Below are positions 1,788-51,332 of a stretch of 64,000 nucleotides of DNA, one piece after another. Origin of the DNA: Rhodothermia bacterium (lineage in GTDB: Bacteria; Bacteroidota; Rhodothermia; Rhodothermales; JAAAOL01); assembly GCA_030428385.1 (NCBI GenBank), contig JAUIDY010000017.1:48-64047 (forward strand), written 5' to 3'. Under the pieces are notes generated by a model. It was not told where the DNA came from and searched no databases. It saw nothing but the letters and a program-made list of their open reading frames with translations. Position 1 is the first letter of the stretch; each line of letters starts with the position of its first letter. The translations under genes and the position numbers were made by a program.

Positions 1788-3563
1788 ATGATCATGCCGA
1801 ACCCCACATTGCGGCGTTGTACGTTATTTTTAGCGGTGTTTGTCTTTGTCACCGCTCCTGTCTTTGGACAGGCAGACGTGCCAGCGGCCCTGCCCCAGTC
1901 GGCCACGCCGTCGGCCTTCGACCAACCGGACCTGGTGCAGCAGTACCAGGAATCTATCACCGCGCAAGACCTCGCGTCGCACCTGTACCTGTTTGCCTCC
2001 GACTATTTTGAGGGGCGCGAGACCGCCACGCGCGGACAGAAGCTGGCGGCGTATTACCTCGCGTCGCAATACCGCAAGATGGGCCTGACGCCCAAAGGGA
2101 CGGTCAACCCCGAAGACACGAATGCACCGTCGGCATATTTCCAGCCGTTTCCGTTGTATGGGCGGCGGCTGCAACGCGCTGAACTAAACATTAAGGTCGG
2201 CGAAGAAACCACGGCAACGGGCGTATTTACCCCCGACGGCGCGGATGGCAGCTTGTACGTCGCCTTCGGCAACCTGCCCCAGCAGAGCGGCGGGGTGGTG
2301 TTTGCAGGCTATGGTATCAGCGATGAGGCGCTTGGCTACGACGACTATGCCGCGATGGAGGCAGCAGGCATTGAGGTGCTGGGCAAGTGGCTGCTCGTGC
2401 TGCGCGACGAGCCGCTCCAGTCTGCCGACGAAAGCTTGCTGCCGACTGAAGACGGCGCTCCGTCCAAGTGGACCCGTCAGACCTTCGAGAAGCTACGCAG
2501 GGCCTATGGCGCGGGCGGCCCCGCGGGGATGCTGATTGTCTCGGACATTGGCCCGAATGCGGTGAACATGACGACGCGTGTGGCCGAGCGGGCCGCGCAG
2601 ATTGCCAACGACGTGGACAACCTGTCGCTCAACGAGCAAGGCTTCAACCGCCCGTTCCCACCCGTCTACGCCATCTCCGCCGAATTCGCCAACCAGATCC
2701 TCGCTTCCTCTGGGCAGACGGTGCAAGACCTGCAAGCCCAGATCGACGGCGAACTGAAACCTGTTGTGTTTGAGGCTGAAGGTGTGACGCTCGAAAGCAA
2801 AATCGAACACGGCAGCTTCGAGACGAGCAGCGAGAATGTGCTGGCCTTTATCGAAGGCAGCGACCCGGTGCTCAAAGACGAAGTGGTAATCATTTCGTCG
2901 CACTACGACCACATCGGCATCAACGCGGCAGGCGATGGCGACCGCATCAACAACGGCGCCGACGACGACGGCTCGGGCACGGTGACGACGCTGGAAATCG
3001 CCGAGGCGTTTATGCAGGCTAAAGCCGATGGCTATGGCCCGCGCCGCTCCATCCTGTTCCTCAACGTCTCCGGCGAAGAGAAAGGACTGCTCGGCTCCGC
3101 GTATTATACCGACATCGAACCCGTGCTGCCGCTCGACAAGTCCGTGACGAACCTCAACATCGACATGATCGGGCGCTACGACCCAACGCACCCGAACGAG
3201 GAAACAGCGACGAACTACGTCTACATCATCGGCTCGAACCTGATTTCGCAGGAGTTGCACGACATCAACGACCGCGTCAACGACCTGACCGGCACCGACC
3301 TCGCCCTCGACGAGCGGTTTAACTCCAAGGACGACCCGAACCAGTTCTACCGCCGCAGCGACCACTGGAACTTCGGCAAGCACGAGATCCCGTTCATCTT
3401 CTTTTTCACCGGCACGCACGAAGACTACCACCAGCCCGGCGACGAAGCGCACAAGATCGATTACGACCGCATGGCCCGTATCGGCCAGTTGATCTTTGCA
3501 ACGGCGTGGCAGGTAGCCAACCAGGACACGCCCCCGGAAGTCTCGGGTGCCGGATTTAACTAG
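1788..3563 (+). CDS. M28 family metallopeptidase (aminopeptidase) with PA domain, secreted
   Basis: Signal peptide MIMPNPTLRRCTLFLAVFVFVTAPVFGQ. M28 zinc-site blocks SSHYDHIG, NNGADDDGSGTVTTLEIAEAF, SGEEKGLLGS and DYHQPGDE. Confidence 0.85.
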   Translation: MIMPNPTLRRCTLFLAVFVFVTAPVFGQADVPAALPQSATPSAFDQPDLVQQYQESITAQDLASHLYLFASDYFEGRETATRGQKLAAYYLASQYRKMGLTPKGTVNPEDTNAPSAYFQPFPLYGRRLQRAELNIKVGEETTATGVFTPDGADGSLYVAFGNLPQQSGGVVFAGYGISDEALGYDDYAAMEAAGIEVLGKWLLVLRDEPLQSADESLLPTEDGAPSKWTRQTFEKLRRAYGAGGPAGMLIVSDIGPNAVNMTTRVAERAAQIANDVDNLSLNEQGFNRPFPPVYAISAEFANQILASSGQTVQDLQAQIDGELKPVVFEAEGVTLESKIEHGSFETSSENVLAFIEGSDPVLKDEVVIISSHYDHIGINAAGDGDRINNGADDDGSGTVTTLEIAEAFMQAKADGYGPRRSILFLNVSGEEKGLLGSAYYTDIEPVLPLDKSVTNLNIDMIGRYDPTHPNEETATNYVYIIGSNLISQELHDINDRVNDLTGTDLALDERFNSKDDPNQFYRRSDHWNFGKHEIPFIFFFTGTHEDYHQPGDEAHKIDYDRMARIGQLIFATAWQVANQDTPPEVSGAGFN

Positions 3564-11201: not shown

Positions 11202-14072
11202 CTATTTCATCAACATGACCTGCCGCGTCTCGGCAAACTGTGCCCCCGCGACCCGGATGAAGTACAACCCACTCGGGTGATCCCCCGCCTCCCACCTAAA
11301 CACACGGCTCACGTTCGCCGCCACCTCGCCCCGGTGCAGCACCGCTACCCGCTGCCCCAACACATTAAATACCTCCACCGACACTGCCTGCGCCTGACCC
11401 ACAGCCAGCGTGAATGTCGTCTCGGGGTTGAACGGGTTTGGATACGCTGCCGACAACTGGTACGCTTCCGCCATCGTGATCTCGACTTCCACCTCCGGGC
11501 TGTATGCAAACGCGCCATCGTAGTCTACCTGCTTCAATCGGAAGACGTGGCTGCCCACAGTGAGGCCCGCGACCGGATAGCGGTACGATTGCGGCTGCAA
11601 CGTCGTGCCAAATCCTTCCACGAAACCCAATTGTACAAACGCGTCGTTCTCCGCCCTGCGATGCTCGATCTCAAAGCCCGCGTTGTTGGTCTCACTGGCG
11701 GTTTCCCAGTTCAGGCGCACGACTTCGCCATCGACCAAGGCTTCGAACAGGGTGAGTTCGACGGGAAGTTCTCCGGCGGACTGTCCTTCGACGGCCCCGA
11801 TGTCGCAGGCGGCAGTACTATCGCCGTTGCCATCGGCGGGGCGGGGCTGTCCGCGCTGGTCGAGGGAGAAGGAGGTGCCACAGCCGAGGGCGCTGGTTTT
11901 GGAGCCGCCGTCGGCGGGGATGGCATCGACGGCGGGGCTGAGCGGGGAGGTGGGGATCTGGGTGAAGGTGGGGCCGCCGTTGTCTTGCAGCGGGCCCAGC
12001 AACGGGTCGGTGTTGATCTGGTCGCCCGTGGCGGTGAGAAAGCCCCCGCCATCGTCGTCGCTCAGGTTGTAGCCCTGCGACGTGATCGTTCCGATAGAGG
12101 TGTCGTCGGCGAGGTTCGCGCCATTGGCCCCATGTGTCAGAATGGTACCACTGACGGTCACATCCCCGATGAAACCGTCATTTAAGATACCCCCCCCCAG
12201 GCCGCTCGTCGCCGTATTTTCACTGATCGTTGCGTTTTGCACCGTTGTGGTGGCACCGAAACTGGTAATGCCGCCCCCTTGAAAAGCCGTGTTCTGGCTG
12301 ATCGTCGTGTTCTGCACCAGGAGCGTGTTGCCACTGTAGATGCCGCCGCCCGTGCCACCGTTCGCGGTGTTACCGCTGATGGTGCTGTTTACCACCGTGG
12401 CACTGCTGCCTGACGTATTGAAAATGCCGCCGCCGTTGATGGCCGTGTTCTGGCTGATTGTCGTGTTCTCCACCGTCAGTGTGCTGTTGTTGCGGATGCC
12501 GCCGCCCGTAGCCAACGACGAGGCCGTGTTGTTCTGGGTGATCACCGCGTTGCGCACCGTCAGCGTGCCACCGTTGAGGATGCCCGCGCCATGATTACCA
12601 CTCGGCACAAACCCGTTTGTTATCGTGAGGCCGCTGATCGTAACCGTGGTGCCCCCGCCGACCTCGAAGATGCGGCTTGTGGCGTCGCCGTCGATGGCGA
12701 GCATCGAGGCGCCCGGCCCGCTGATGGTCATGTCATCGGTGATGGTGGGCAACTGCATGCCGCCAAGCAGGATGGTGCCCGTGACGTTGGTCTTGTCGGA
12801 TATTCCTGTGCTGTCGAATGCAACGACGCCCGTGCCCGCCATGCTGCTCGCGAAGGTGATGATGTCGGTGCCGGGCCGGGCATTGGCGTAGGTGATGGCT
12901 TCGCGCAGGCTCGTGCCGCTTCCAAGGAGCGGATCACTCGTGCCGTTGTATTCGTCGGTGGCGGTTGTCACCACCAGCGATTCGAACGTCTCCACCGCAC
13001 CGATGTCGCTGTTGTCGCCGCCCGAAGCCGGAGCGATGCTGGTATCATCCTGAGGGCGCGTTCGGCCCCGTTGGTCGGTGCCCATGCCCGTGAGTTCTTT
13101 GCCCTTGTCGATGGCGGGGCTGCCGGGCATCGGCAAGTGCGTGGGGGTAGGACCGTCGTTTTCCTGGAGCGGACCCAGCATGGGGTCGGTGTTGAGTTGG
13201 TCGCCCGGTTCATCGAAGACGCTGGGTAGGCTGTTGTCATCGAGGAGGTTGTACCCTAGCGAGGTGACTGTTCCACCACCAACAACGTTAGCCCCTCCTG
13301 TTGCTCGCTTGAAGATATTGCCACCAAAGAACCAAGAACCATCGGCCGTTACGTTGCGGGGCGCATTCTGACTGAACGTAGAATTCAAAATCACCGTATC
13401 ATCCCCGCCGCCTGTGCGAATGATCGCGGCAGATCCGCCCGTATTTTGGCTAAAGGTGGAATTCAAAACCGTCACCGGCCCGCCCCTAATCAAGATGCAA
13501 CTTGCATCTACTCCCACGCCTGTATTTTGGCTAAACGTGGAGCCTTCTACGGTTAAGTTGGAAGTCGAAAGGGTAGTAATGGCAGCGCCAATATCAGGGC
13601 CGTTTTGACGGAAGTGGACATTCCGAACGGTCAACGTGCTCCCCGTCAAGATAGCTTGGGTCGTATTCTGAAGCGTAAGGCCGCTGATGGTGACCGTCGT
13701 GCCGGAAATAACGAAAAAGAGGCGACCATCGGCGGAGACCGTGCCGTCAATCGTAAGCACCGACGCACCTGGCCCGCTAATGGTCAGGTTGGTGGAAAGC
13801 AACAAGATATTACTGAGCGTGATGGTACCCGTCACGCCGCCATCGAACGTGATGGTATCGTCGCCGGGGTTGGCGTTGGCTTCGTCAATCGCCTCGCGCA
13901 GCGTGCAGTGGCTGTCACAAACACCATCGTCGATGTCAGCAGTGGTGGTCACCGTGTAGGTAGCGGCTTGCACAGTCGGAGTCGCCAGCAGCAGCACCCA
14001 AAGACCCAGAAAAAACGCAGAGCGCAACACGGCTATTTGCACTCCGGTGGTAAAAATCGTAGACAAAAGCAT
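11202..14072 (-). CDS. Large secreted parallel beta-helix protein (two choice-of-anchor-Q-like modules) with PVELT domain and T9SS C-terminal sorting domain
   Basis: Start at the ATG at 14072 (MLLSTIFTTGVQIAVLRSAFFLGLWVLLLATPTVQA). Two CxLREAI-type heads (CTLREAIDEANANPGDDTITF; TSLREAITYANARPGTDIITF), each followed by NxTxSxNT beta-helix repeats and a GYNL..D..GDQ.NTDP.LGPLQ.N.GPT...P...SPA.D.....DQRG..RP tail. C-terminus LPVELTLFEAL...AYPNPFNPETTF...GLYFIRV...VMLMK. Confidence 0.8.
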   Translation of the reverse strand: MLLSTIFTTGVQIAVLRSAFFLGLWVLLLATPTVQAATYTVTTTADIDDGVCDSHCTLREAIDEANANPGDDTITFDGGVTGTITLSNILLLSTNLTISGPGASVLTIDGTVSADGRLFFVISGTTVTISGLTLQNTTQAILTGSTLTVRNVHFRQNGPDIGAAITTLSTSNLTVEGSTFSQNTGVGVDASCILIRGGPVTVLNSTFSQNTGGSAAIIRTGGGDDTVILNSTFSQNAPRNVTADGSWFFGGNIFKRATGGANVVGGGTVTSLGYNLLDDNSLPSVFDEPGDQLNTDPMLGPLQENDGPTPTHLPMPGSPAIDKGKELTGMGTDQRGRTRPQDDTSIAPASGGDNSDIGAVETFESLVVTTATDEYNGTSDPLLGSGTSLREAITYANARPGTDIITFASSMAGTGVVAFDSTGISDKTNVTGTILLGGMQLPTITDDMTISGPGASMLAIDGDATSRIFEVGGGTTVTISGLTITNGFVPSGNHGAGILNGGTLTVRNAVITQNNTASSLATGGGIRNNSTLTVENTTISQNTAINGGGIFNTSGSSATVVNSTISGNTANGGTGGGIYSGNTLLVQNTTISQNTAFQGGGITSFGATTTVQNATISENTATSGLGGGILNDGFIGDVTVSGTILTHGANGANLADDTSIGTITSQGYNLSDDDGGGFLTATGDQINTDPLLGPLQDNGGPTFTQIPTSPLSPAVDAIPADGGSKTSALGCGTSFSLDQRGQPRPADGNGDSTAACDIGAVEGQSAGELPVELTLFEALVDGEVVRLNWETASETNNAGFEIEHRRAENDAFVQLGFVEGFGTTLQPQSYRYPVAGLTVGSHVFRLKQVDYDGAFAYSPEVEVEITMAEAYQLSAAYPNPFNPETTFTLAVGQAQAVSVEVFNVLGQRVAVLHRGEVAANVSRVFRWEAGDHPSGLYFIRVAGAQFAETRQVMLMK

Positions 14073-14123
14073 GGTGTACTTCGAATAAGTAGATGTCAAA
14101 TGGTCGAATAGAGCCCGTACGGA

Positions 14124-14173
14124 AACGACAGACAACGACATACAACGACATACAACGACATACAACGACAGAC
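14124..14173. repeat. Tandem repeat, 5 copies of a 10-bp unit (ACGACAKACA)
   Basis: acgacagaca acgacataca acgacataca acgacataca acgacagact. Lies 52-101 nt upstream of the start codon at 14072 (minus strand). Confidence 0.9.
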
Positions 14174-19781: not shown

Positions 19782-20113
19782 GAGGTGGAAACGTTGTTTG
19801 GTGGATCAAAGGTCGGGCGAAATACCGCTTCTGAAAAAAGCAGGTGCAAGGTACTTAGGCCCATGATCCTCTCTGACAACACGCTCGGCTTTGCTCGCTT
19901 TGTTGTCTGTCTCTCCTAAAGACATAGGAGAGACAGATTGCTGAGGAACGAAGGTGAGGCAGCAATCGGAGAGGTTGAACCAAACGATGCCCTTCCCTTT
20001 CCTGGATCTGGTAAGGTTCGTCGTTTTTGACCTTGAGATTGCGTCGCAAGGCGGTTAGATTAAAAACACCATCAGGACACCCGACTTATTGTTTCACTTC
20101 TTTGGAGGATGCG

Positions 20114-20830
20114 ATGAAACGCTTATTCCTCGTCGGTTCTGTTGGTCTGTGGTTTGCCCTCGTCGCCCCGGTGGCCGTTGCCTGCACCTGTGTCCCGCTC
20201 CCGCAGCCGGAGCAAGCCTTTTCCGAAGCCACGCTGGTATTCTCCGGCACGGTGCTGGGCTTTAGCGACGCGGACAGCACCGACTTTATGATGTTTGTTA
20301 ACTTCGATGTGCGCCGCGTGTGGAAAGGCCCCGCAAACGGACACCAGGAGGTGCAAACGGCGGGATATGAAGGCGTGCCCAACACCGCCGCGTGTGGCTA
20401 TCCGTTTCAGGTGGGCGAGACGTACCTCGTATACGCCCACGCCTACGGCCCCGACGGCGAAATCGAAGCCTCGTCGTGTACCCGTACCCGCCTGGTGGCC
20501 GATGCCAGCGAAGACCTGGCATTTCTGGGCGAAGGCACGACGGTAAACACCGAATCGCCTGAACTCCCGCTCGTCTCGTCGCTGGGCAATTACCCCAATC
20601 CTTTTGCCCGCACCACCACGGTTTCCTTCACCCTCGAAGCCTCTACTGCTGTCATGCTGAACGTGTATGATCTTGCGGGGCGATTGGTTAAGCAGAGGGA
20701 TCTTGGTGTTCGCAACGCCGGGACCTATGCCGAACCGCTCGACCTAGGCACGCAGGCCGCAGGCATCTACTGGTACGAAATCCAAACTGGCACCTCGGCT
20801 ACCCGTCAACCGCTGCTGCTGGTGCGATAA
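20114..20830 (+). CDS. Secreted TIMP/NTR-like domain protein with T9SS C-terminal sorting domain
   Basis: ATG at 20114 preceded by GGAGGA. Signal peptide ends AVA|CTCVPLPQPEQAFSEATLVFSGTVLG. Cys at mature positions 1, 3, 71 and 99. The C-terminus has NYPNPFARTTTVSF...GIYWYEIQT...LLLVR. Confidence 0.75.
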   Translation: MKRLFLVGSVGLWFALVAPVAVACTCVPLPQPEQAFSEATLVFSGTVLGFSDADSTDFMMFVNFDVRRVWKGPANGHQEVQTAGYEGVPNTAACGYPFQVGETYLVYAHAYGPDGEIEASSCTRTRLVADASEDLAFLGEGTTVNTESPELPLVSSLGNYPNPFARTTTVSFTLEASTAVMLNVYDLAGRLVKQRDLGVRNAGTYAEPLDLGTQAAGIYWYEIQTGTSATRQPLLLVR

Positions 20831-20837
20831 ACAAAAA

Positions 20838-20870
20838 GGGCGGCTTGCGTTGGTGGCAAGCCGCCCTTTT
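20838..20870. terminator. Bidirectional rho-independent terminator between convergent genes
   Basis: Perfect 11-bp stem GGGCGGCTTGC / GCAAGCCGCCC flanked by AAAAA upstream and TTTT downstream. Confidence 0.75.
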
Positions 20871-20876
20871 CCCTTT

Positions 20877-21859: not shown

Positions 21860-23239
21860 CTACCGTACCCGGATTAAGAACTGCGACTCGCGGATGCTAC
21901 CCGTTTCGAGGCCGTAGACGTACACCCCTGCCGGAAGACCCGCCGCGTCCAGCTGGTACTGGTACGTGCCCGTCGGCATCGAGGCATTCACCAGCGTGGC
22001 GACTTCCTGCCCGAGCAGGTTAAACAGCCGTAGCCGCACCGGCCCCGGTTCCTGCACCTCGTAGGTGATGGTGGTCTGCGTGCGCACCGGGTTGGGATAG
22101 CTGGCGTGGAGCAACGCCGGGCGTGGGAGTTCGGCTTCTTCGGTTGCCGTCACCACCGCAGGCTGCGTGGAGCGGTACAACGCATCGGGATAAAATCCGA
22201 TGTAGGCATAGCCGTCGGCGTCTATTTCCAACGCCATAGGTCTTAAATCTACTTCCAAAGCGGGGCCTACATCGTGCCAGGTATCACCGCCATCTTCCGA
22301 ATAAATGATCTGAATGCTCCCGCCCTCACGAATAGCCGTAAACACCTTTCCGTTGGAGACCGTCCAGGCTCGGGGAACCCTTTCTTGACACTCCAGAGAG
22401 CAGGGAAACAATCCGTTGATGCGTTCCCACGTCTCGCCGTTGTCTCTGGACCGAAACGTTCCATACCCTGCTGTCGCACTGGTTTTGGGCGCGGCAGCAC
22501 CACCGGTCAGAAACAAGCTATAAAACAGGGTACCAGTCCCATCAATGACAAGATCGGCAGGCCAATTCTCATCGGGGGATTGCTCTTCTTGTGTGGGCAG
22601 GCCGTCATCAAAGCGGGTCCAACTACCGCCTTGATCCTGGGTGCGGTACACAAATGCCCAACCCAAGGTCGCTGCCATGATGCCGCCGTTCTGCGTCATC
22701 GTGAGGCGATACCCTGCAACCTCATATTCATGCTCTCCCACTACTTCGATGGGGCTCACGGTTTCCCACGCCTCATCTCCCTGACGATAACGGTTTATGC
22801 CGAGTTCGCTTCCCACAAAAAGCGCCTCTTCTTCCTCACTGTAGATCATGTCTGATGGGGACGCCCCAGAGCGCCGTGGACCATAATTTTCCCATGTCTC
22901 GCCATTCGCGGAATAAAAAACATGATCCCAATACGTAGCCCACACCCGACCATCTGGCATTGCAAATAAGGCATATATCTTTCGCTGCCCTCGGTCGTCA
23001 GGTAAAGCTACCACATCCCACGTTTCGCCATGATCACGTGACTCATAAAGGCCTCTCCACGTCCCCGCATAGACCCTGCCATCCGGGACTGACGCGAACA
23101 GGACATTCGGAACCCATGCATTTTCGATTGCTTGGATGTCTACGCCCACCACCTTTTCCCAATAATCTGTCGCCGGTTGTCCCATGGCAGCGGTCGCCAA
23201 CAGGCATCCCAGCACCAACACATATCCGCTTCTTTTCAT
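21860..23239 (-). CDS. Secreted BNR/Asp-box beta-propeller protein (sialidase/Ycf48-like fold) with T9SS C-terminal sorting domain
   Basis: ATG at 23239 (MKRSGYVLVLGCLLATAAMGQ). Asp-box repeats SRDHGETW, TQDQGGSW, SRDNGETW and SEDGGDTW. C-terminus SYPNPVRTQTTITY...GVYVYGLET...LIRVR. Confidence 0.75.
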   Translation of the reverse strand: MKRSGYVLVLGCLLATAAMGQPATDYWEKVVGVDIQAIENAWVPNVLFASVPDGRVYAGTWRGLYESRDHGETWDVVALPDDRGQRKIYALFAMPDGRVWATYWDHVFYSANGETWENYGPRRSGASPSDMIYSEEEEALFVGSELGINRYRQGDEAWETVSPIEVVGEHEYEVAGYRLTMTQNGGIMAATLGWAFVYRTQDQGGSWTRFDDGLPTQEEQSPDENWPADLVIDGTGTLFYSLFLTGGAAAPKTSATAGYGTFRSRDNGETWERINGLFPCSLECQERVPRAWTVSNGKVFTAIREGGSIQIIYSEDGGDTWHDVGPALEVDLRPMALEIDADGYAYIGFYPDALYRSTQPAVVTATEEAELPRPALLHASYPNPVRTQTTITYEVQEPGPVRLRLFNLLGQEVATLVNASMPTGTYQYQLDAAGLPAGVYVYGLETGSIRESQFLIRVR

Positions 23240-23327
23240 GACCAGCCCCCGATAAAGATGTGACGAGAAGCACATCCACTAACATAGAGGTTGGCAGGCT
23301 ATGAATCCAGCTACTTCGGTGTAACGA

Positions 23328-27820: not shown

Positions 27821-28882
27821 TTACGCTGCAGCCGACTTCCACGCCTCGAAGGCTTGCGCCAGCGACGCCTCGAAGGCGTCAGGCGCATCCACCGCAAACT
27901 GAAGACGGGAGATCGTTTTTTGATATCCATACAATCCGTGTGCCACCACGGGCTCCGTCAGCGTGAGCAAATACTGCGGCGCGCCGAGGGGTGTCACATT
28001 AAGGAGATGCGTGGTTTTACGCGGAAGGGGATACTCGTGCGCCCGCCAAACCGCATCAATGGCCGAAAACGGGACGTGGATGGTCCATCGCAGCCCCGAA
28101 CGGACCACCACGCCCTCGGAACCCACCGTAATAGGGCGGAGCCGCGCCGCCTGAATCTCGGCGAGGCCCCATAACATACCATAGGCGCTGAGCCCGGTCA
28201 GCACCCACGCTGCCACCGCGCTCCACTGCTGCACCAGCACATGCACCGCCACCATTTCGACACAGGCAGCGACCAGTATTGCGGTCACCACCACGCCATA
28301 GCTACTCCGCCGGTGCGAGGAAAAGCACGGCGCTCCCTGCGGTGTTGCACGCCGCCATCCCGTCAGGGCGTAGGCAAACACACTCAGTTCATACGCCACC
28401 ACGTTGGCCGCCCAGGGAACGGGAATGACCTCACGCACCCCCGCCATCATGGCTTCCAGCAAATCGGCATTGGCAGAGCGTGTCCGTAGCTGTTGGGCGA
28501 TACGATACGCCCGGTGGCCGAGCACGCCCAACACCAGCAGTTCGATCGGTGCTGCGAGGTAACCCAATAAGTGCAACGCGGCCTGATGGTCAGCCGGGAT
28601 GAGTTGGTGTGCCACCAACATGCTCCCCACAAAAACGGGCACGACGGTAATCCACGACCATCCCTGCCACCGGACGACCAGGCCATAAAAGAGCAATGGC
28701 ACCAGCACCACCAGATCAAACGTCAGCGCCGCCGCCAACACGTCGGGCTTGGGGGTTTGTGCGATGATGCCTACCACATAAACCGCCGTGGCATACACCA
28801 GCAACGTAACCAGAAAAAACAACAACAGCGGCAGGCGAAGGCGGAGCATAAACAGGGAAAAGGACTGCGTCAGGGCAGGCAT
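27821..28882 (-). CDS. Polytopic membrane protein of unknown function with a soluble C-terminal domain
   Basis: Start moved to the ATG at 28882 (MPALTQSFSLFMLRLRLPLLLFF...), which removes an R/S-rich extension and the overlap with the yjbR-like gene. Several hydrophobic helices. The stop lies 17 nt upstream of the FG-GAP gene start. Confidence 0.55.
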   Translation of the reverse strand: MPALTQSFSLFMLRLRLPLLLFFLVTLLVYATAVYVVGIIAQTPKPDVLAAALTFDLVVLVPLLFYGLVVRWQGWSWITVVPVFVGSMLVAHQLIPADHQAALHLLGYLAAPIELLVLGVLGHRAYRIAQQLRTRSANADLLEAMMAGVREVIPVPWAANVVAYELSVFAYALTGWRRATPQGAPCFSSHRRSSYGVVVTAILVAACVEMVAVHVLVQQWSAVAAWVLTGLSAYGMLWGLAEIQAARLRPITVGSEGVVVRSGLRWTIHVPFSAIDAVWRAHEYPLPRKTTHLLNVTPLGAPQYLLTLTEPVVAHGLYGYQKTISRLQFAVDAPDAFEASLAQAFEAWKSAAA

Positions 28883-29022
28883 GGTACCCGCCGACCGGGC
28901 GTTGTGTTGCGAACCGTCGGTCTGCGTAGCGCCGGTGGTGTTGCGAACCGGCTTCGTCCCCTGGAATGGCCTTGGTGTGCCCCGTATCTTTCCACCTCTT
29001 CGCCACCTGCTGCTGCTTGCTG

Positions 29023-29385
29023 ATGACGCTCGACTCCTTCCGCGACTACTGCCTCGCCAAGCCGGGCACCACCGAGGAATTGCCATTCGGCCCCGATGTG
29101 CTTGTCTTCAAAGTGAAGGGCAAGATGTATGCGACCCTGTCCCTCGACGATATTCCGCCGCGTGTCAACTTAAAATGTGACCCCGAAGAAGCCGTGGCGT
29201 TGCGCGACCGCTACGAGGCGGTGGTACCCGGCTATCACATGAACAAAAAACACTGGAACACCGTCATCCTGAACGGCTCCGTCCCGCTGGCGGTGCTTCG
29301 GGACATGATCGAGCAGTCGTACGCGCTGGTTGTCGCCAAGCTCAAAAAAGCCGACCGAGAATCCCTCAACCTGACGCCTTCATGA
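29023..29385 (+). CDS. MmcQ/YjbR family DNA-binding protein
   Basis: FRDYCLAKPGTTEELPFGPDVLVFKVKGKMYA...VNLKCDPEEA...PGYHMNKKHWNTVILNG. ATG at 29023. Confidence 0.8.
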   Translation: MTLDSFRDYCLAKPGTTEELPFGPDVLVFKVKGKMYATLSLDDIPPRVNLKCDPEEAVALRDRYEAVVPGYHMNKKHWNTVILNGSVPLAVLRDMIEQSYALVVAKLKKADRESLNLTPS

Positions 29386-29870
29386 AAACACTGCTTCCTC
29401 TGTTGCTGCTCGTGGGCCTCAGTGCCTGCCACACCATCACTCCACGCGGCACCGACCACGACCTCGCGGCCACGCTGATCGCCCTGGAACGCACCTGGGC
29501 CGAAGCAGAACTCGCCGCCGACACCACTACGATGCGCCGCCTGCTGGCCGATGACCTCGTGGCGACCACGTTTTATGGCGTCATGATTCAAGACGTCGAT
29601 GCGGTGGTTGCCGCCCCGCTTGACCCGGCCCTTTCCCTCCGCACCATCCAACAGTCGGATCTGCAGGTCAAGCGTCTTGGCCCCGACCTGGCGATGGTAA
29701 CCGGCCGGGCTGACATGGACTGGGCCTTTAACAACACGCCCCTCCCTGCTGCGATGCGGTACACCCGTCTTTACCAGCACCAGCGCGGCACCTGGAAAGT
29801 CATCGCCGTGCATGTGTCTCCCGTCGTAAACCCCCTGCGCGTGGCCACTGCCGAGGGCGATGGGGCCTAA
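29382..29870 (+). CDS. DUF4440/SnoaL-like (NTF2 fold) lipoprotein
   Basis: Lipobox LLLLVGLSAC|H. LERTWAEAELAADTTTMRRLLADDLV...YTRLYQHQRGTWKVIAVHVS. The start overlaps the upstream stop (ATGA). Confidence 0.7.
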   Translation: MKTLLPLLLLVGLSACHTITPRGTDHDLAATLIALERTWAEAELAADTTTMRRLLADDLVATTFYGVMIQDVDAVVAAPLDPALSLRTIQQSDLQVKRLGPDLAMVTGRADMDWAFNNTPLPAAMRYTRLYQHQRGTWKVIAVHVSPVVNPLRVATAEGDGA

Positions 29871-30330
29871 CTTTTCAGGTCTGCTAAAAATCACGTACTT
29901 CCCGGAACGCCTATTTTCGAACGGGCGTTTTCCCTCTCGCAAGGTATTGCCATTTGGAAAACGGAAGGCTTTAGATTGGAACGGTCTTGGCATAGCCCCG
30001 TGCTATAAACGTCCCGCTATTTTTTTCCAGCATCCCGAAGACCAAACAGGCGCAGATTTTGGTTGCTCAAGACCTGCTTTTTGGCGTTCTTCGTGATGAT
30101 TGATTTTTTCTGGTCGCCTTCCCCAACGCCAGTGAAGGGAAAAAACTGGATTCCTTTGATCGATCCCTCAGGGTTTGCCCCGAGACAGGTCATTGACCAC
30201 CTGCTGGACGCCCCTACCACCTACCGGGTTGGCGCAACCAGCCCCTTCGTTAAACGGTCTCTTACTCGTCCGATTTTCTCGCACTGAAAGATCCGATGTC
30301 TCGCTTAGCGACTCGGAATGGAATGGAACG

Positions 30331-39608: not shown

Positions 39609-39706
39609 GCATAGGGTGGATGCATACACAATAACCACCCGTGGGACGACCTCCGTGGCGCCCCGCGTACATAATCCCCAACCCTCTTTTTCTCTTGCCC
39701 CAAAGT

Positions 39707-39734
39707 CATATTACGAATATAAATTCGTAATATG
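39707..39734. promoter_or_regulatory. AT-rich inverted repeat CATATTACGAAT-ATAA-ATTCGTAATATG (12+4+12): candidate operator upstream of the GH30 gene
   Basis: Perfect 12-bp arms at 39707-39718 and 39723-39734, 47-74 nt upstream of the ATG at 39781. Confidence 0.45.
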
Positions 39735-39780
39735 TATTTCATATCTAAGCCCCAATTTTGAATCCTTACCCTGCTCTTTC

Positions 39781-41325
39781 ATGCCTCCACCCTTCCGCTC
39801 CTCGCTGCGTGTTGTGTCAAAGCCCCTTGGCTGTCTCCTTGCTTTGCTGGTTGCGTTTTCGCCCCCGGTCCAGGCACAGGAAGAAGTACACGTTTTCCTC
39901 GACAGCACGGCGCAGGTGATCCGGGGCTTTGGAGCGGCCAACATCGTGGGGTGGCGGCCCGACATGACCAGCGCCGAGATCGAAACGGCGTTTGGAACGG
40001 AGGAAGGCCAACTCGGCTTTTCAATCATGCGGCTGCGTATTCCGCCTCAGCAAAACCAGTGGGGCCTGAACCTGCCCTCAGCACAGGCCGCGCATGCCAT
40101 GGGCGTCACCGTAATCGCCTCGCCGTGGTCACCGCCTGCCTCCATGAAAACAAACAACAGCCTTGTGCGGGGGCGGCTTCGGGAGGATAGCTATGCTGAC
40201 TACGCGGCGTATCTGGACGACTTTAACACCTACATGAACGACAATGGCGTGCCGCTCTACGCCGTCTCGATCCAGAACGAGCCGGATGTGGAGGTGACGT
40301 ATGAGTCGTGCGACTGGAACGGAGAGGAAGTGCGGAAATTTATGGCGGAGAATGCCGGAGCCATCAACACCAACGTGATTGCTCCCGAATCCTTTCAGTT
40401 CAGGCGCAACGTGTCGGACCCCATGTTAAACGACCCGGACGCCCTCGCCAATGTGGACATCGTGGGCGGGCACATCTATGGAGGCGGGCTGGCTCCGTAT
40501 CCGCTGGCCCAGGAAAAGGGCAAGGAGGTTTGGATGACCGAGCACCTCGTCCTGGACATCAACCTGGCCGCCAACATCGGGACGGCCACGGAGATTCAGA
40601 ACGTGATGAAAGCGGGGATGAGCGCTTACATCTGGTGGTACATCGTCCGGTTTTACGGCCCCATCAGCGATGGCGAAATGGGCGGCTATGCCAAAGGCGA
40701 AATCACCAAACGCGGCTATGCCATGTCGCAATTCTCCCGGTTCATCCGCCCCGGCTATATGCGCGTGCACACCGATGATACGGCATCAAACGTTTCCGTC
40801 ACAGCCTACAAGGATGACTCGCGGGTTGTTATCGTGGCGATCAACGATGGCGCGGCGTCTGAAGACGTTCAGTTCACGCTAGACGGCAGCATGGACGGTT
40901 TATTTAGCCGCTATGTAACCAGCGAAACGCAAAACGTGGAGCGCATGGACGACATCGCTCTTTCTGGCCATGCGTTTACCGCGACGCTCGGCCCCCGCAG
41001 CGTGACGACGTTTGTGTCGGATGCCACCGTGCTGTCCGATGAAAACACCGACGAGCTACCGACGGCCTACCAACTTCTCCAGAACTACCCCAACCCGTTC
41101 GCCTCTGCTACGACCATTGGCTATGCCATTCCGCACGCCAGCAATGTCACGCTGGAGGTATTCGACGTGATGGGCCGCAAGGTCGCAACACTGGTAGACG
41201 GCATGGTTCCGGCCGGCAGCCATCAGACCTCCTTTAACGCCGCCGCTCTCTCCGCCGGGGTGTATATTTATCAACTCAGCGCCAATGGAAGCGTACAGAC
41301 GCAACGGATGACGGTGGTGAAATAG
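39781..41325 (+). CDS. xynC: Glycoside hydrolase family 30 subfamily 8 glucuronoxylanase (XynC-like) with T9SS C-terminal sorting domain
   Basis: ATG at 39781. Collinear with B. subtilis XynC as recalled: VIRGFGAAN, QLGFSIMRLRI, ASPWSPPASM, LYAVSIQNEPD, VIAPESFQF, LNDPDALANVDIVGGHIYG, EVWMTE, YIWWYIVRFYGP, ITKRGYAMSQFSRFIRPGY. C-terminus NYPNPFASATTIGY...GVYIYQL...MTVVK. Confidence 0.88.
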   Translation: MPPPFRSSLRVVSKPLGCLLALLVAFSPPVQAQEEVHVFLDSTAQVIRGFGAANIVGWRPDMTSAEIETAFGTEEGQLGFSIMRLRIPPQQNQWGLNLPSAQAAHAMGVTVIASPWSPPASMKTNNSLVRGRLREDSYADYAAYLDDFNTYMNDNGVPLYAVSIQNEPDVEVTYESCDWNGEEVRKFMAENAGAINTNVIAPESFQFRRNVSDPMLNDPDALANVDIVGGHIYGGGLAPYPLAQEKGKEVWMTEHLVLDINLAANIGTATEIQNVMKAGMSAYIWWYIVRFYGPISDGEMGGYAKGEITKRGYAMSQFSRFIRPGYMRVHTDDTASNVSVTAYKDDSRVVIVAINDGAASEDVQFTLDGSMDGLFSRYVTSETQNVERMDDIALSGHAFTATLGPRSVTTFVSDATVLSDENTDELPTAYQLLQNYPNPFASATTIGYAIPHASNVTLEVFDVMGRKVATLVDGMVPAGSHQTSFNAAALSAGVYIYQLSANGSVQTQRMTVVK

Positions 41326-44024: not shown

Positions 44025-46226
44025 TCATCGGAGCACCACCATCTTGTTCATCAGCCTGCGTTCGCCCACCTGCAGGCGGTACATATAGAGTCCCGAAGGA
44101 AGGGTGGCGGCATCAAACGTGACCGTATGCATTCCTTCTGCCTGAACCTCATCTACGAGGACGGCTACTTTCTGCCCAATCATATTAAAGACCTCTAGCT
44201 GTACCCGTGTGGACGCGGGCAGGCGATACGGAATCTTCGTCTCTTGCTGAAACGGATTCGGATAGTTCTGACCCAAGGCAAAATCGCCCGCAAGGCCCTC
44301 GGGGAGGGCTTCCGTCGCAACGATTTGGCCCACCGGTGCTACGTATACCCGATATCCGTAGAGCGGATCAGCGATATCCACCGGGACCGTGATTGAGCCT
44401 TCCGCAACCTCGTAGGTGGTGAGGGACACGGTAACGGGGCCTGCCACGGGCGTGTCTTTGTTGGACCACGGCACATATTCCACCTGCACATCCACCTCGT
44501 CGCCAAAGCTGGCGGGGATGCCGCTGATCACTACATCCACATTGCCCATGTGGTCGCCTCCCAAACCGATGCTGGCATATGCTGCGTCCATATCCAGATT
44601 TGCAAAACCGTCGATGCCATCCCCACTTTCGCTCGGCGGTGTTACCCGCACCATGTCCCCGGTCATGTCGCCATACCACTTATAGAACCACCAGCCGCCG
44701 CCTCGCTCATTGCTCGCCGTCAGCAGACTCCCCAACCGGCCGGGCAAATTGACAAACCACCAGGAAATAGAAGCGCTGTGGACCAGCTTGCGCTCGAATT
44801 TAGCAATAAACGGAGCCGAAATGCCGGGCGCGCCTTCGTATTCACGCGTCGTGTGCGAGTACTCGTTGATGCTGATCTCGCGGGGTGCAATACCGAGACT
44901 GCTCTCCAGCGACCGGTAGCTGTCGATATTGCTGCTCACATTGTCCGAACCCCCGAGTTCATGCCACGAAATAATATCGGGCAGGCAGTCATTTTGGATA
45001 CAAAACGTCAGGAACTCCTCGATGCGCGAGCGGCTGTAAAACGAATCCGAGGGTCCAATAATAGCGGCTTCGGGGTCCAGCGAGCGGATCAGGTCACAGG
45101 TGGGCTTCCAAAGGGTGGAAAAGAACTCGCCGTTGGCCGTATCCCATGTGCCGTGCTGTTCGTTCCATATCTCATAGCCGTAGTAGTTATCGCGTCCAGA
45201 CGCAATCTTGTCATTGATGACGCCCGTAACCTGGGAGACCCAACTCGCCTCGCCGGGCCAGATATAGGGCCAATTAGGAGAAATATCCGCCAACCGGATC
45301 GCGACCTGGCCTGTCGTAGAAGCGAGCCGTGCTGAAACCGGGATGGCGGCGCCAAAGGGCTGTTGGTGTCCTGCTCCAGACAGGGCTGGCTGCACATACA
45401 CATAGGGTTTGAGGGGAGCGACCATCTCTTCCAGGTTGGCGGGCAAGGTTTCCGTGACGCCATACAGCGCACCAGAGGCTGCATGCGTAACGGGCCGCAG
45501 GATATCGGAAAGATCGACCCGCAGCGTGTTCTCAATGTCTGGAATTTCGAATACGCCGGGCTCCCCATTGTCCAGGTTCTCCACGGTGTAGAATGCATCC
45601 AGCGGCGCAAAGGCAAACTTGTCAATGTCGAGCCCATCCTCCCGCGCACCGATCTCGAAGACTTGCGTCAGCGCCCCCGCCGCGACGACGAACGGGTCTC
45701 CCGGCTCGCTTGTCACGTCGTAGCTCGTGAGCCGCAGCCACTTCCATACCTCACTGCCCAGCGTCCCCGCCGACTCCACGTAGGCACCAGCGTCTGCGTA
45801 GCCTACGCCTGCGAGGCCGTTGACCAGCGTCCAGGCATCAGGATTTGTTGGATCGTGCGCTTCCCCAAAGCCAATGCCGTAGAAAAAGCTGTCATCATCA
45901 AACGCACCGGGGCCAACACGCAGACGCACATAGAGCGCATAGGTACCCGCTTCAGGAAACGTAACCACGTAACTTGCGGTGCGCCCCGCGCCCGGAAACC
46001 CGGCGTCTCCCGTTGTCTCGTTAAAGTTGGTCGTGATGGAGATGTAGGAAGCAGAGTCTTCGCTGAGCGTGGCAAATTCACCACCGATGGTGCCCGACTC
46101 CGCCTCGACAAGCAGGGGCGGCGGCGCGGCATCTTGCGCCATCGATGGAATCGTGGTGGGCACCAGGACGAGGAGCCCGAAGAGGGTGGTCATTACCACC
46201 AACAGCGCGGGGAAGCGGGTATTCAT
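44025..46226 (-). CDS. Secreted putative glycoside hydrolase (clan GH-A-like core, family unassigned) with the same N-terminal 190-aa module as the GH10 enzyme and a T9SS C-terminal sorting domain
   Basis: Signal peptide MNTRFPALLVVMTTLFGLLVLVPTTIPSMAQ. Module LLVEAESGTIGGEF...YTVENLDNGEPG. Core contains YYGYEIWNEQHG (candidate acid/base) and EISINEYSH (candidate nucleophile) 99 aa apart. NYPNPFQQETKIPY...GLYMYRLQV...MVVLR. Confidence 0.6.
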   Translation of the reverse strand: MNTRFPALLVVMTTLFGLLVLVPTTIPSMAQDAAPPPLLVEAESGTIGGEFATLSEDSASYISITTNFNETTGDAGFPGAGRTASYVVTFPEAGTYALYVRLRVGPGAFDDDSFFYGIGFGEAHDPTNPDAWTLVNGLAGVGYADAGAYVESAGTLGSEVWKWLRLTSYDVTSEPGDPFVVAAGALTQVFEIGAREDGLDIDKFAFAPLDAFYTVENLDNGEPGVFEIPDIENTLRVDLSDILRPVTHAASGALYGVTETLPANLEEMVAPLKPYVYVQPALSGAGHQQPFGAAIPVSARLASTTGQVAIRLADISPNWPYIWPGEASWVSQVTGVINDKIASGRDNYYGYEIWNEQHGTWDTANGEFFSTLWKPTCDLIRSLDPEAAIIGPSDSFYSRSRIEEFLTFCIQNDCLPDIISWHELGGSDNVSSNIDSYRSLESSLGIAPREISINEYSHTTREYEGAPGISAPFIAKFERKLVHSASISWWFVNLPGRLGSLLTASNERGGGWWFYKWYGDMTGDMVRVTPPSESGDGIDGFANLDMDAAYASIGLGGDHMGNVDVVISGIPASFGDEVDVQVEYVPWSNKDTPVAGPVTVSLTTYEVAEGSITVPVDIADPLYGYRVYVAPVGQIVATEALPEGLAGDFALGQNYPNPFQQETKIPYRLPASTRVQLEVFNMIGQKVAVLVDEVQAEGMHTVTFDAATLPSGLYMYRLQVGERRLMNKMVVLR

Positions 46227-50750: not shown

Positions 50751-51308
50751 ATGAATACCCCGGCGTGGCCGAACAACAACGACTGGATGGACGACCGGCT
50801 GGAGGCGTACCTCGACGACGCCCTGCCTGCCGACGAACGCCGCGTCTTTGAACAACGGCTACAGGAAGAAGACGAATGGAGCAACGAGCTGGCGCTGGCG
50901 CGTCAGATCCAAGACGGGCTGCATACCTTGCCGTTCCCCTCGTGTCCCCCAGCGGTGACCCAGGCGGTGTTGGCCGAGGTACAGCACCGACGCCGGATGT
51001 CGTTTATGACCCGCGTGCGGGCTTGGCTCGATGCCCAGTTCCACAGTTTCTGGCAGCCTGCGCTCGCCATGAGTGTGCTCGTGCTGGTGGTGGGCTCCGC
51101 CGTGCTCTTTGGCCGTCCGCCCCAACAATCCAACAGCGCCGAGGTCGAGCAGGCGCTGGCCGAGGTACGCTGGACCCTGGCCCTCCTTACCGAGATGGGC
51201 CGCGAAACCGGCACCGCCGTGCGCAGCGATGTCATCGAAAAGCGCATTGTTACGCCCATGCAAGACGCGCTCGGGTTTGCCCCGCCGCGTGACACCGATA
51301 CCGACTAA
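50751..51308 (+). CDS. Putative anti-sigma factor (single-pass membrane protein)
   Basis: The ATG lies 2 nt after the sigma stop. N-terminal LEAYLDDALPADERRVFEQRLQEEDEW anti-sigma-like helix and one TM segment (PALAMSVLVLVVGSAVLF). Confidence 0.7.
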   Translation: MNTPAWPNNNDWMDDRLEAYLDDALPADERRVFEQRLQEEDEWSNELALARQIQDGLHTLPFPSCPPAVTQAVLAEVQHRRRMSFMTRVRAWLDAQFHSFWQPALAMSVLVLVVGSAVLFGRPPQQSNSAEVEQALAEVRWTLALLTEMGRETGTAVRSDVIEKRIVTPMQDALGFAPPRDTDTD

Positions 51309-51332
51309 AACCCTTTTAAGAGGCATAGACCG

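Follow-up and report, generated by a model that had tools for sequence, protein, structure and literature searches.

The gene, its signals, and its surroundings

The 64-kb window (the whole stretch of DNA that was analyzed) carries on its plus strand a complete reading frame for a protein of 238 residues, in which a signal peptide is followed by a TIMP-like domain, a flexible linker, and a T9SS C-terminal sorting domain (CTD) (Table 1). This reading frame is a genuine gene. The GGAGGA element just upstream favors the ATG as its start over a more distant TTG at position 20027, and a protein identical to the product is recorded in public assemblies. The GC content of the gene, 60%, matches that of its surroundings, and the neighbors are Rhodothermales housekeeping genes; the assignment to Rhodothermales follows from a PFK identity of 80 to 83%. 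Searches for a phage or defense origin with PHROGs and PADLOC returned zero matches, and such an origin was rejected. Downstream, a terminator-like hairpin separates the gene from a convergent yiaAB-like gene.

Table 1. Features of the gene for the TIMP-like protein (window coordinates; Cys and Thr numbered in the mature protein)
Feature	Position	Strand	Basis
Promoter candidate, sigma-70-like, TTGAGA-17-TAGATT	20033..20061	+	Consensus match only; 1 found versus 0.3 expected (shuffles)
Shine-Dalgarno-like GGAGGA	20104..20109	+	Direct reading; 4 nt 5' of ATG
Complete CDS, 238 aa plus stop	20114..20830	+	ATG 20114; stop 20828-20830
Sec signal peptide, aa 1-23	20114..20182	+	Direct reading with the -3/-1 rule
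N-TIMP-like NTR/OB-fold domain, aa 24-146 (123 aa)	20183..20551	+	Pfam TIMP, family profile, AF2, Foldseek
Cys codons C1, C3, C71, C99	20183-5, 20189-91, 20393-5, 20477-9	+	
Thr2 codon	20186-8	+	
Flexible linker, aa 148-162	20555..20599	+	Full-length model, pLDDT <50
T9SS type-A C-terminal sorting domain, aa 160-238	20591..20827	+	PF18962, TIGR04183, all-beta model
Intrinsic-terminator-like GC-rich hairpin (GGGCGGCTTGC...GCAAGCCGCCC) plus T-run	20838..20876	+	Direct reading; inner stem 20852-20865 found computationally

The translation begins MKRLFLVGSVGLWFALVAPVAVA|CTCVPLPQPEQAFSEATLVFSGTVLG..., with the predicted cut at AVA|C, so that the mature protein starts CTCVP. The signal peptide comprises an n-region (MKR), an h-region (LFLVGSVGLWFALVA), and a c-region (PVAVA). 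An earlier note on this DNA, written from the sequence alone, had quoted this translation exactly and had correctly placed cysteines at mature positions 1, 3, 71, and 99 (residues 24, 26, 94, and 122).

The same note had read the C-terminus as a T9SS sorting domain, and two profiles bear this out above their cutoffs: TIGR04183 (37.8 bits versus 23, E = 1.4e-9) and PF18962 (32.6 bits versus 27, E = 1e-7), whose matches cover residues 160 to 230 of 238. In the full-length model the sorting domain (mature residues 144 to 213) is all-beta with a pLDDT of about 70 to 88, and the linker (mature residues 125 to 139) falls below 50. At least four further CTD-bearing reading frames lie in the window (11202-14165, 21860-23275, 39616-41325, and 44025-46226). 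The profiles, the model, and these further CTD proteins support the reading of the protein as a T9SS cargo. The four reading frames and the Rhodothermales affiliation also speak indirectly for a putative T9SS machinery (PorK/L/M/N, Sov, PorU/V) elsewhere in the genome. Together with the Pfam TIMP match, the CTD profiles and the full-length model also confirm that a linker and a T9SS CTD stand in place of the C-TIMP subdomain.

Relationship of the first domain to animal TIMPs

We conclude that the N-terminal domain is genuinely related to animal TIMPs. Its similarity to them is far beyond chance by the Pfam TIMP profile, by a profile of the bacterial family compared with TIMP-2, and by Foldseek. 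The Pfam search (PF00965), a check that the earlier note had called for, gave a significant match above the curated threshold (24.3 bits for the full protein, E = 3.1e-5, and 26.0 bits for the N-domain alone, versus a gathering score of 23.1) that spans profile positions 2 to 108 of 183. Individually, 49 of 88 relatives match the same profile, the best at E = 8e-10. When the bacterial family profile was run against the PDB, all 15 matches were TIMPs, with TIMP-2 at E = 4.7e-10 in an alignment that runs from Cys1 to Cys101. HMMER also reproduces the collinear matches to TIMP-1 and TIMP-2 that the note had listed (CTCVP/CTCVP, AF/AF, WKG/FKG, AACG/AVCG, and the last cysteine). Profiles were necessary because single-sequence searches were marginal: phmmer gave E values of 0.3 to 1.7 against PDB TIMPs, and a word-indexed search for homologues that used the N-domain sequence by itself returned only 2 proteins, badly underestimating the size of the family.

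The predicted structure leads to the same relatives. The AF2 model of the N-domain (pLDDT 91.5, pTM 0.87) is a five-stranded OB barrel of the NTR type with flanking helices, in line with the fold that the note had expected, and N-TIMPs are its nearest neighbors. Foldseek ranks 1 to 17 are TIMP-1, TIMP-2, and TIMP-3 (E of 2e-6 to 3e-5, TM of 0.64 to 0.73, probability 1.00), followed by agrin NtA, PCOLCE, meteorin, and C345C NTR modules. By the family profile (sequence) and Foldseek (structure), no other NTR module comes as close to the domain as the TIMPs do. The observation of a TIMP-like N-domain on a T9SS cargo is thus confirmed, and the interpretation of the domain as a TIMP module is supported; its inhibitory activity is something that we infer.

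HMMER retrieved 10,015 related cluster representatives (clusters defined at 50% identity), 2,992 of them at E<=1e-10, from Bacillota, Myxococcota, Chloroflexota, Acidobacteriota, Bacteroidota, and Thaumarchaeota. The view of the protein as a Bacteroidota curiosity must therefore give way to membership in a very large pan-prokaryotic family. The weak phmmer values taken singly might suggest a resemblance by chance or convergence, contamination with eukaryotic DNA, or recent acquisition from an animal, a reading that we find barely credible. It is refuted by the HMMER family, with its thousands of representatives in many prokaryotic phyla, and by the PDB profile matches and Foldseek, which combine strong profile significance with a matching fold; the bacterial signal peptide, the T9SS CTD, the 60% GC, and the Rhodothermales neighbors speak against it as well.

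The protein has only four cysteines (C24, C26, C94, and C122). They are invariant in 88 sequences and essentially invariant among 257 family members, and they align with C1, C3, C72, and C101 of TIMP-2, equivalent to C1, C3, C70, and C99 of TIMP-1. C-x-C motifs and free N-termini are able to bind metals, the protein is extracytoplasmic, and a protease partner was not found among its neighbors; a reduced C-x-C might thus serve as a metal-binding or redox motif on an OB-fold (e.g., to handle envelope Cu or Zn), the TIMP features being merely ancestral. We consider this very unlikely, as the four cysteines occupy the TIMP disulfide positions and the family alignments show no other conserved metal-ligand residues (His or Met clusters). 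Moreover, Cys3 and Cys99 are lost jointly in 7 domains (archaea and Chloroflexota), versus 3 single losses, while Cys1 and Cys71 are kept, a pattern that fits structural disulfide pairs and not a C-x-C chelate.

The TIMP-1 C13-C124 disulfide and the C-terminal subdomain with its three disulfides, both typical of vertebrate TIMPs, are absent. We treat both the third disulfide and the C-TIMP subdomain as non-defining, because they are missing also from accepted single-domain helminth TIMPs. The serine that had been claimed at the place of TIMP-1 Cys13 is present, but it is mature residue 14, not 13, owing to a one-residue insertion relative to TIMP-1. After Cys99 the family carries a motif specific to bacteria, C-[ST]-R-T...A-x-E-D-L, in which R101 is invariant; it has no TIMP counterpart and could signal a different function.

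The mature N-terminus and a proposed function

Cleavage exactly before Cys1, as the earlier note had it, agrees with our prediction, which was rule-based (the -3/-1 rule): A-V-A|C-T-C is the sole site in the protein that obeys the rule for signal peptidase I. The A-x-A|C-x-C arrangement is shared by 239 of 257 family members. Among these 257, Ala occupies position -3 in 193 and Val in 28 (together 221), position -1 is Ala in 244, and Y, F, R, H, W, D, or E is frequent at -2. Residue 2, which matters in TIMPs as an S1' determinant (PMC3679795), is Ser or Thr in 232 of the 257 (about 90%; 185 Ser and 47 Thr) and Thr here. In 147 of the 150 best family representatives, the signal peptide ends right before the CxC. 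To our knowledge, NTR modules without inhibitory activity occupy internal or C-terminal positions and never the mature N-terminus, so the conserved N-terminal placement argues for a function of the N-terminus itself.

A cysteine straight after a signal peptide is also the hallmark of bacterial lipoproteins, and VAVA|C meets a permissive PROSITE-style lipobox rule, as do the sites of 94 of 257 relatives. If signal peptidase II made the cut and Cys24 then received a diacylglycerol and an N-acyl group, both a Cys1 disulfide and zinc chelation would be excluded. This is highly improbable, as a classical lipobox ([LVI][ASTVI][GAS]C) occurs in just 5 of 257 members, the site here is A-V-A-C with the Ala at -3 that prevails in the family, and the residues frequent at -2 are tolerated by signal peptidase I but not by a lipobox. 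The lipoprotein reading was rejected on these -3 and -2 statistics. Cys1 is, in addition, one of four co-conserved cysteines aligned with the TIMP disulfides, and a C-terminal T9SS CTD, TM segment, or MYXO-CTERM makes an N-terminal anchor redundant. Every recognizable anchor in the family is C-terminal (among 258 members, 96 TM-like, 21 MYXO-CTERM-like, and 20 T9SS-like, with the MYXO-CTERM profile above its cutoff). Such anchors leave the N-terminus free, which fits a need for it to be free.

No metalloprotease gene adjoins the gene among its neighbors in the window, where the sole peptidase of note is an M28 aminopeptidase, not a TIMP-type target. At 80 related loci, a HExxH/metzincin motif scan found a putative metallopeptidase neighbor in only 4, scattered, and all-versus-all clustering of the neighbors found no gene family conserved across phyla. 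Two apparent HExxH neighbors proved in Pfam scans to be an IstB ATPase and an M50 protease. An ABC ATPase neighbor recurs only within related Bacillaceae and Acidobacteria.

It is possible, though in our judgment unlikely, that the protein is a TIMP homologue by fold and ancestry that inhibits nothing, i.e., an NTR/OB module for binding or adhesion displayed on the surface by the T9SS, comparable to agrin NtA, netrin, sFRP, PCOLCE, or C345C modules. Non-inhibitory NTR modules do come after the TIMPs in the Foldseek ranking, a protease neighbor is not conserved, and the motif after Cys99 is missing from TIMPs. Multidomain relatives also exist whose tandem internal repeats begin C-P-R-C and, being internal, are unable to present a free N-terminus. 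Against a mere binding module stand the start of the domain at the exact signal peptidase site in nearly all of the best representatives, the prevalence of Ser or Thr at residue 2, the exclusively C-terminal anchors, and the greater proximity of TIMPs, in sequence and structure, than of other NTR modules.

Based on these features, we favor the reading that the gene encodes a prokaryotic TIMP that would share the mechanism and inhibitory action of the animal proteins, with a probability of roughly 0.6. Most likely, it would act as an inhibitor, tethered to the cell surface or released, whose Cys1 chelates the zinc of a protease. After Sec export, signal peptidase I would cut after AVA and expose the free alpha-amino group of Cys1, and oxidation in the periplasm would form Cys1-Cys71 and Cys3-Cys99. 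The T9SS would then recognize the CTD, translocate the already folded protein through the outer membrane, and cleave off the CTD, leaving the module either released or tethered C-terminally to the cell surface. As in TIMPs, a wedge of residues 1 to 5 (CTCVP) and the disulfide-linked loop of residues 68 to 71 (TAAC) would enter the active-site cleft of a zinc metalloprotease, where the alpha-amino and carbonyl groups of Cys1 would chelate the catalytic zinc and Thr2 would face the S1' pocket. The protein may in this way guard the cell surface or secreted cargo against metalloproteases, whether these are secreted by the organism itself or come from competitors, predators, or grazers; the target protease would be encoded away from this locus.

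A prokaryotic family and its comparison with known systems

The origin of the TIMP family has been placed in the eumetazoan ancestor (PMC10755359), and a 2021 study of Listeria stated that bacterial TIMP-like proteins were unrecorded in the literature (PMC8235301). We found no published work on bacterial TIMPs in the literature searched, with subscription journals outside its coverage. The existence in prokaryotes of some 10,000 clusters of such proteins alters the accepted view of TIMP origin, and the family retains the mechanistic TIMP signature, namely, a predicted signal peptide cut before C-[S/T]-C and the cysteines of the two wedge disulfides. We tentatively propose, at odds that we would put slightly below even, that TIMPs are no eumetazoan invention: they would belong to a vast and ancient family of bacteria and Thaumarchaeota, composed of N-terminal-Cys OB-fold proteins that are functional zinc-metalloprotease inhibitors, shown on surfaces with a free N-terminus via C-terminal TM, MYXO-CTERM, or T9SS anchors, and serving as a general shield against proteolysis in microbial communities, with animal TIMPs derived from this family or sharing its origin. 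Few protease inhibitors have received as much attention in medicine as the TIMPs. If the prokaryotic proteins are active, the evolutionary origin of TIMPs needs rethinking, the family offers a large and diverse library of minimal scaffolds (about 120 aa, two predicted disulfides) for engineering metalloprotease inhibitors, and a widespread, unrecognized layer of protease defense or regulation exists on microbial surfaces.

Vertebrate TIMPs belong to MEROPS I35. The bacterial protein shares with the N-domain of TIMP-1 to TIMP-4 the NTR/OB fold, a mature C-[T/S]-C-x-P terminus generated by signal peptide cleavage, the positions of Cys1-Cys~70 and Cys3-Cys~99, the T-A-x-x-S-A-x-C-G loop before Cys70/72, and the W/F-K-G motif. 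It differs in lacking the C-TIMP subdomain and the third N-domain disulfide, in its identity of about 22%, in the C-[ST]-R-T...A-x-E-D-L motif after Cys99, and in its fusion to a T9SS sorting domain.

The nearest bacterial analogue of the mechanism that we infer here is provided by the serralysin inhibitors of Erwinia and Pseudomonas (Inh/APRin; MEROPS I38; cited in PMC8235301). The N-terminal residues of these extracytoplasmic beta-barrel proteins insert into the metzincin cleft, where the N-terminus touches the catalytic zinc. In contrast to the TIMP-like protein, they are built on an unrelated eight-stranded barrel and have neither a CxC nor a disulfide wedge. Their genes adjoin that of their protease, whereas the TIMP-like family has no conserved protease neighbor.

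Both isolated N-TIMP domains and the single-domain TIMPs of helminths count as recognized inhibitors or family members (PMC3679795). The single-domain proteins of nematodes and other helminths (e.g., hookworm Ac-TMP and AceES-2; PMC3679795) are likewise secreted N-TIMP/NTR domains without a C-TIMP subdomain, and AceES-2 has just two disulfides (PMC3679795), the number predicted for the bacterial protein. However, the second disulfide of AceES-2 sits elsewhere, whereas the cysteines of the bacterial protein lie at both canonical TIMP pair positions, and the helminth proteins are eukaryotic and carry no C-terminal sorting signal.

Two further bacterial proteins invite comparison. Potempin A of Tannerella forsythia is, like the protein studied here, an OB-fold protein of a member of the Bacteroidota; it is an inhibitor located at the surface, as the TIMP-like protein may be, and it blocks karilysin, an MMP-like T9SS protease, as well as human MMP-12 (PMC9890683). 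It differs in being lipid-anchored at its N-terminus and in acting by a "bilobal" loop mechanism rather than by chelation of zinc through the N-terminus; the authors of the study see no structural relationship to TIMPs, and the potempin A gene lies immediately upstream of that for its target (PMC9890683). Tim of Listeria monocytogenes is another bacterial protein described as TIMP-like, and its partner is a metzincin (PMC8235301). Its likeness to TIMPs comes solely from a Phyre2 fold prediction and is "not in sequence," and it is a lipoprotein without a CxC N-terminus, which the metzincin cuts about 50 residues in (PMC8235301).

TIMP homology and gene architecture

We conclude that the resemblance of the N-domain to TIMPs is real at three independent levels: a curated profile, a family profile and the fold. 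Pfam TIMP (PF00965; gathering score, 23.1) matches residues 23 to 123 over profile positions 2 to 108 with 24.3 bits, and the N-domain alone scores 26.0 bits. When a profile built from 116 bacterial relatives was searched against PDB sequences, it retrieved 15 distinct sequences, all 15 of them TIMPs (top match, TIMP-2; E=4.7e-10). The alignment with TIMP-2 runs from Cys1 of the mature human protein to Cys101; C1 and C3 match, as do the W/F-K-G motif and the loop T-A-x-S-S-A-x-C-G, which contains Cys72. AlphaFold2 models the mature N-domain with confidence (pLDDT 91.5, pTM 0.87) and gives it the expected NTR-type OB fold: the best 17 Foldseek matches in the PDB are TIMP-1, -2 and -3 (E 2e-6 to 3e-5, TM 0.64 to 0.73), followed by other NTR modules (agrin NtA, PCOLCE, meteorin and complement C345C). 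Single-sequence phmmer against PDB TIMPs is marginal (E=0.3); therefore, a resemblance spotted by eye needs profiles for proof.

The C-terminal half holds a T9SS type-A sorting domain (residues 160 to 230) that exceeds the cut-offs of both PF18962 (32.6 bits versus 27) and TIGR04183 (37.8 bits versus 23). In the full-length model, a disordered linker (mature positions 125 to 139, pLDDT <50) separates the N-domain from an all-beta CTD (mature positions 144 to 213). The window encodes at least four further T9SS CTD proteins. The adjoining phosphofructokinase is 80 to 83% identical to Rhodothermales, Rhodocaloribacter and Rhodothermus enzymes, from which we assign the host to the Rhodothermales, as an uncultured member of a lineage using T9SS. 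The finding of the earlier note, a TIMP-like module exported as T9SS cargo, is thus real and its reading is supported. Homology and domain architecture, taken without the inhibitory mechanism, are very nearly certain.

The first start of the open frame in the ORF listing is a TTG at 20027. We consider the ATG at 20114 the better start, because a GGAGGA and a promoter-like site precede it. The gene looks monocistronic, since a hairpin with a T-run and then a convergent gene follow its end. Translation and ORF listing agree with the ORF as first described. The 238-residue product begins MKRLFLVGSVGLWFALVAPVAVA, followed after the predicted cleavage by CTCVPLPQPEQAFSEATLVFSGTVLG, and Cys residues 24, 26, 94 and 122 fall exactly at the mature positions 1, 3, 71 and 99 that had been claimed. 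A Ser had been placed opposite Cys13 of TIMP-1; the phmmer alignment confirms the Ser but puts it at mature position 14, not 13, because of a one-residue insertion.

Features of the window and of related loci (L handles) that carry a TIMP-like homologue
Feature	Location	Strand	Remark
M28-family aminopeptidase, 591 aa	window 1788-3563	+	PF04389 E=1e-36; only peptidase among ORFs scanned
T9SS CTD ORF, 987 aa	window 11202-14165	-	no other Pfam domain
Promoter-like site	window 20033-20061	+	upstream of ATG 20114
GGAGGA	window 20104-20109	+	ahead of ATG 20114
GC-rich hairpin and T-run	window, after gene end 20830		just before convergent yiaAB-like gene
T9SS CTD ORF, BNR/sortilin-like	window 21860-23275	-
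ORF, 421 aa	window 27821-29086	-	no Pfam match at E<=1e-4
ORF, 252 aa	window 29235-29993	-	no Pfam match at E<=1e-4
T9SS CTD ORF, GH30/GH59-like	window 39616-41325	+
T9SS CTD ORF, GH39-like	window 44025-46226	-
ORF, 193 aa, HExxH motif	window 50859-51440	-	no Pfam match at E<=1e-4
DUF4344 'putative metallopeptidase'	L020:4121-4984		Acidobacteriota; beside TIMP-like gene
DUF4344 'putative metallopeptidase'	L067:669-1520		Acidobacteriota; beside TIMP-like gene
M60 enhancin-like gene	L040:4558-5886		Blastocatellaceae MAG (Acidobacteriota); directly upstream of homologue
Thaumarchaeal homologue	L023:5887-6543		Nitrososphaera
Thaumarchaeal homologue	L028:5845-6531	+	Nitrosocaldus
Neighbour of that homologue	L028:4180-5049	-	Nitrosocaldus

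A prokaryotic family with a conserved N-terminus

The Rhodothermales protein belongs to a huge family of prokaryotic proteins. A word-indexed search with the single sequence returned 2 proteins only; exhaustive HMMER over 1.84 billion cluster representatives gave 10,015 matches at E<=1e-3 and 2,992 at E<=1e-10. A genome scan placed relatives in bacteria (Sporosarcina, Bacillus, Brevibacillus and allies, Myxococcota, Chloroflexota, many Acidobacteriota, one cyanobacterium, Cytophagia, KSB1 and Omnitrophota) and archaea (Nitrososphaera and Nitrosocaldus). Pfam TIMP is reached individually by 49 of 88 members at E<=0.01, and NCBIfam contains no model for the TIMP-like domain. Nearly all source annotations read 'hypothetical protein'. 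Some members are already tagged automatically in databases: many have a precomputed PF00965 match, and a single JGI entry bears the name 'Tissue inhibitor of metalloproteinase'.

The signal peptide stops directly before C-x-C in 147 of the 150 best representatives (CSC in 106, CTC in 26). Of 257 members, 193 have Ala and 28 have Val at position -3, 244 have Ala at -1, and position -2 is highly variable (frequently Tyr, Phe, Arg, His, Trp, Asp or Glu). The predicted family cleavage site is of the signal-peptidase-I A-x-A type, and a classical lipobox occurs in only 5/257; we therefore reject the reading of the Cys after the signal peptide as that of a lipoprotein. Cys1 is followed by Ser or Thr in 232 of the 257, as in the four human TIMPs.

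An 88-sequence alignment shows no variation at any of the four Cys, and 320 of 391 aligned domains have them all, the remainder being mostly from Bryobacterales proteins with an insertion that splits the domain. Single losses are confined to 3 of the 391; in 7 (Thaumarchaeota, Chloroflexota and two unplaced sequences, with the Nitrosocaldus and Nitrososphaera homologues showing this state) Cys3 and Cys99 are jointly absent and Cys1 and Cys71 kept. Disulfides paired as in TIMPs, Cys1-Cys71 and Cys3-Cys99, would be expected to leave such a pattern, which supports this pairing indirectly; the Cys positions align with those of the TIMP disulfides.

Split domains occur at loci L041, L045-L048, L050-L053, L055-L057, L063-L066, L068-L072, L074, L075, L077 and L079, mainly from Bryobacterales/Solibacteraceae (Acidobacteriota) plus one MAG labelled Verrucomicrobiia. 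There, the N-terminal piece with CxC and the piece with Cys71 and Cys99 come out as two HMMER matches, 70 to 150 residues apart.

Recognisable anchors in 258 members are all C-terminal: a TM-like helix with a basic tail (96), a T9SS CTD (20) and a MYXO-CTERM-like GGCxxC...RRR tail (21; TIGR03901 above cut-off in member proteins P0124 and P0064); 74 are bare domains. Other C-terminal extensions include Ig-like spacers, CarboxypepD_reg and dockerin. Different phyla have thus each fused their own sorting device C-terminally, leaving the N-terminus free. In four members (P0078, P0201, P0222 and P0151), the C-terminus carries repeats resembling dockerin or EF-hand (a PF00404 match is precomputed for P0201 and P0222), so that binding to scaffolds with cohesins may be another form of C-terminal display.

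Probable inhibition, a rival binding role and candidate targets

The mechanism, beyond the fold, is probably also retained, the main argument being the conserved position of the N-terminus. After Sec export, signal peptidase I would cut after AVA and expose Cys1, and periplasmic oxidation would form two disulfides. The T9SS would then export the protein and remove the CTD, leaving the module released or C-terminally attached to the surface. A wedge of Cys1-Thr2-Cys3-Val4-Pro5 and the disulfide-linked loop before Cys71 would enter the cleft of a zinc metalloprotease; as TIMPs do when bound to MMPs (PMC9890683, PMC3679795), it would bind the zinc through the alpha-amino and carbonyl groups of Cys1 and place Thr2 at S1'. 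We give this full reading, a prokaryotic TIMP inhibiting a zinc metalloprotease via Cys1, a probability of about 0.6.

A non-inhibitory binding role is a weaker candidate, which we consider rather unlikely. After Cys99, the family shows an invariant motif (C-[ST]-R-T ... A-x-E-D-L) that is absent from TIMPs, and internal C-P-R-C repeats in multidomain relatives (P0008, P0009, P0015 and P0029) make a free N-terminus impossible there. Nor do the neighbours include an evident target (AmiA-like amidase, PFK, UbiE methyltransferase, YiaAB, TetR regulator, BNR-repeat T9SS cargo and MacB/FtsX permease). However, the family N-terminus lies at the cleavage site, whereas non-inhibitory NTR modules are, to our knowledge, internal or C-terminal.

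Giant or tandem members (P0015, P0018 and P0029, of 1030 to 1213 aa, and P0008, P0009, P0061 and P0146) have two or three TIMP-like repeats; CSC opens the first after the signal peptide, and C-P-R-C opens the internal ones. P0015, P0018 and P0029 extend about 800 residues beyond the repeats; a scan of P0015 gave no Pfam or NCBIfam match.

Binding without inhibition would also fit the sparse genomic context of potential targets. The sole peptidase found in the window, the M28 aminopeptidase, is an unlikely target, because it is not a metzincin and lies 16 kb away. Across 80 related loci there is no conserved neighbour family beyond local synteny, and only 4 have a putative metallopeptidase nearby; therefore, any target of an inhibitor is normally encoded in trans or comes from another organism. 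The M60 enhancin-like and DUF4344 products are candidate targets, although we know of no TIMP inhibition of such enzymes. Divergent from the Nitrosocaldus homologue lies an ORF for a secreted product of 289 aa, which has the metzincin-type motif HEVSHAYGLEH and no Pfam match; the two could be a novel archaeal metzincin and its inhibitor.

Comparison with known inhibitors

The protein shows each defining TIMP feature that was examined in sequence and model: profile match, fold, a Cys-X-Cys start at the predicted cleavage site, and Ser/Thr2. Missing, in contrast to vertebrate TIMPs, are the third disulfide of the N-domain and the C-TIMP subdomain. The accepted single-domain helminth TIMPs also lack both (PMC3679795); therefore, their absence does not exclude TIMP membership. 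The present protein differs from the helminth ones in being prokaryotic and in having a C-terminal sorting signal.

What should surprise specialists is the scale of the family and the strict retention of the mechanistic signature outside animals. The weight of this is limited, as the inhibitory function and any target are putative and automatic annotation had already caught the domain. The literature searched, which takes in few subscription journals, yielded no studies of bacterial TIMPs.

The closest mechanistic analogues in bacteria have either an unrelated fold or an unrelated mechanism. Serralysin inhibitors fold differently and share an operon with the protease. Potempin A shows the OB fold, yet it is a lipoprotein and inhibits by another mechanism, termed 'bilobal' (PMC9890683). 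Listeria Tim is TIMP-like by fold prediction only, and its authors could find no previous report of TIMP-like proteins in bacteria (PMC8235301). A 2023 phylogenomic paper placed the origin of the TIMP family in the eumetazoan ancestor (PMC10755359). We regard the Rhodothermales protein as a putative minimal, single-domain prokaryotic TIMP with two predicted disulfides, fused to a T9SS sorting domain and standing for a very large uncharacterised family.
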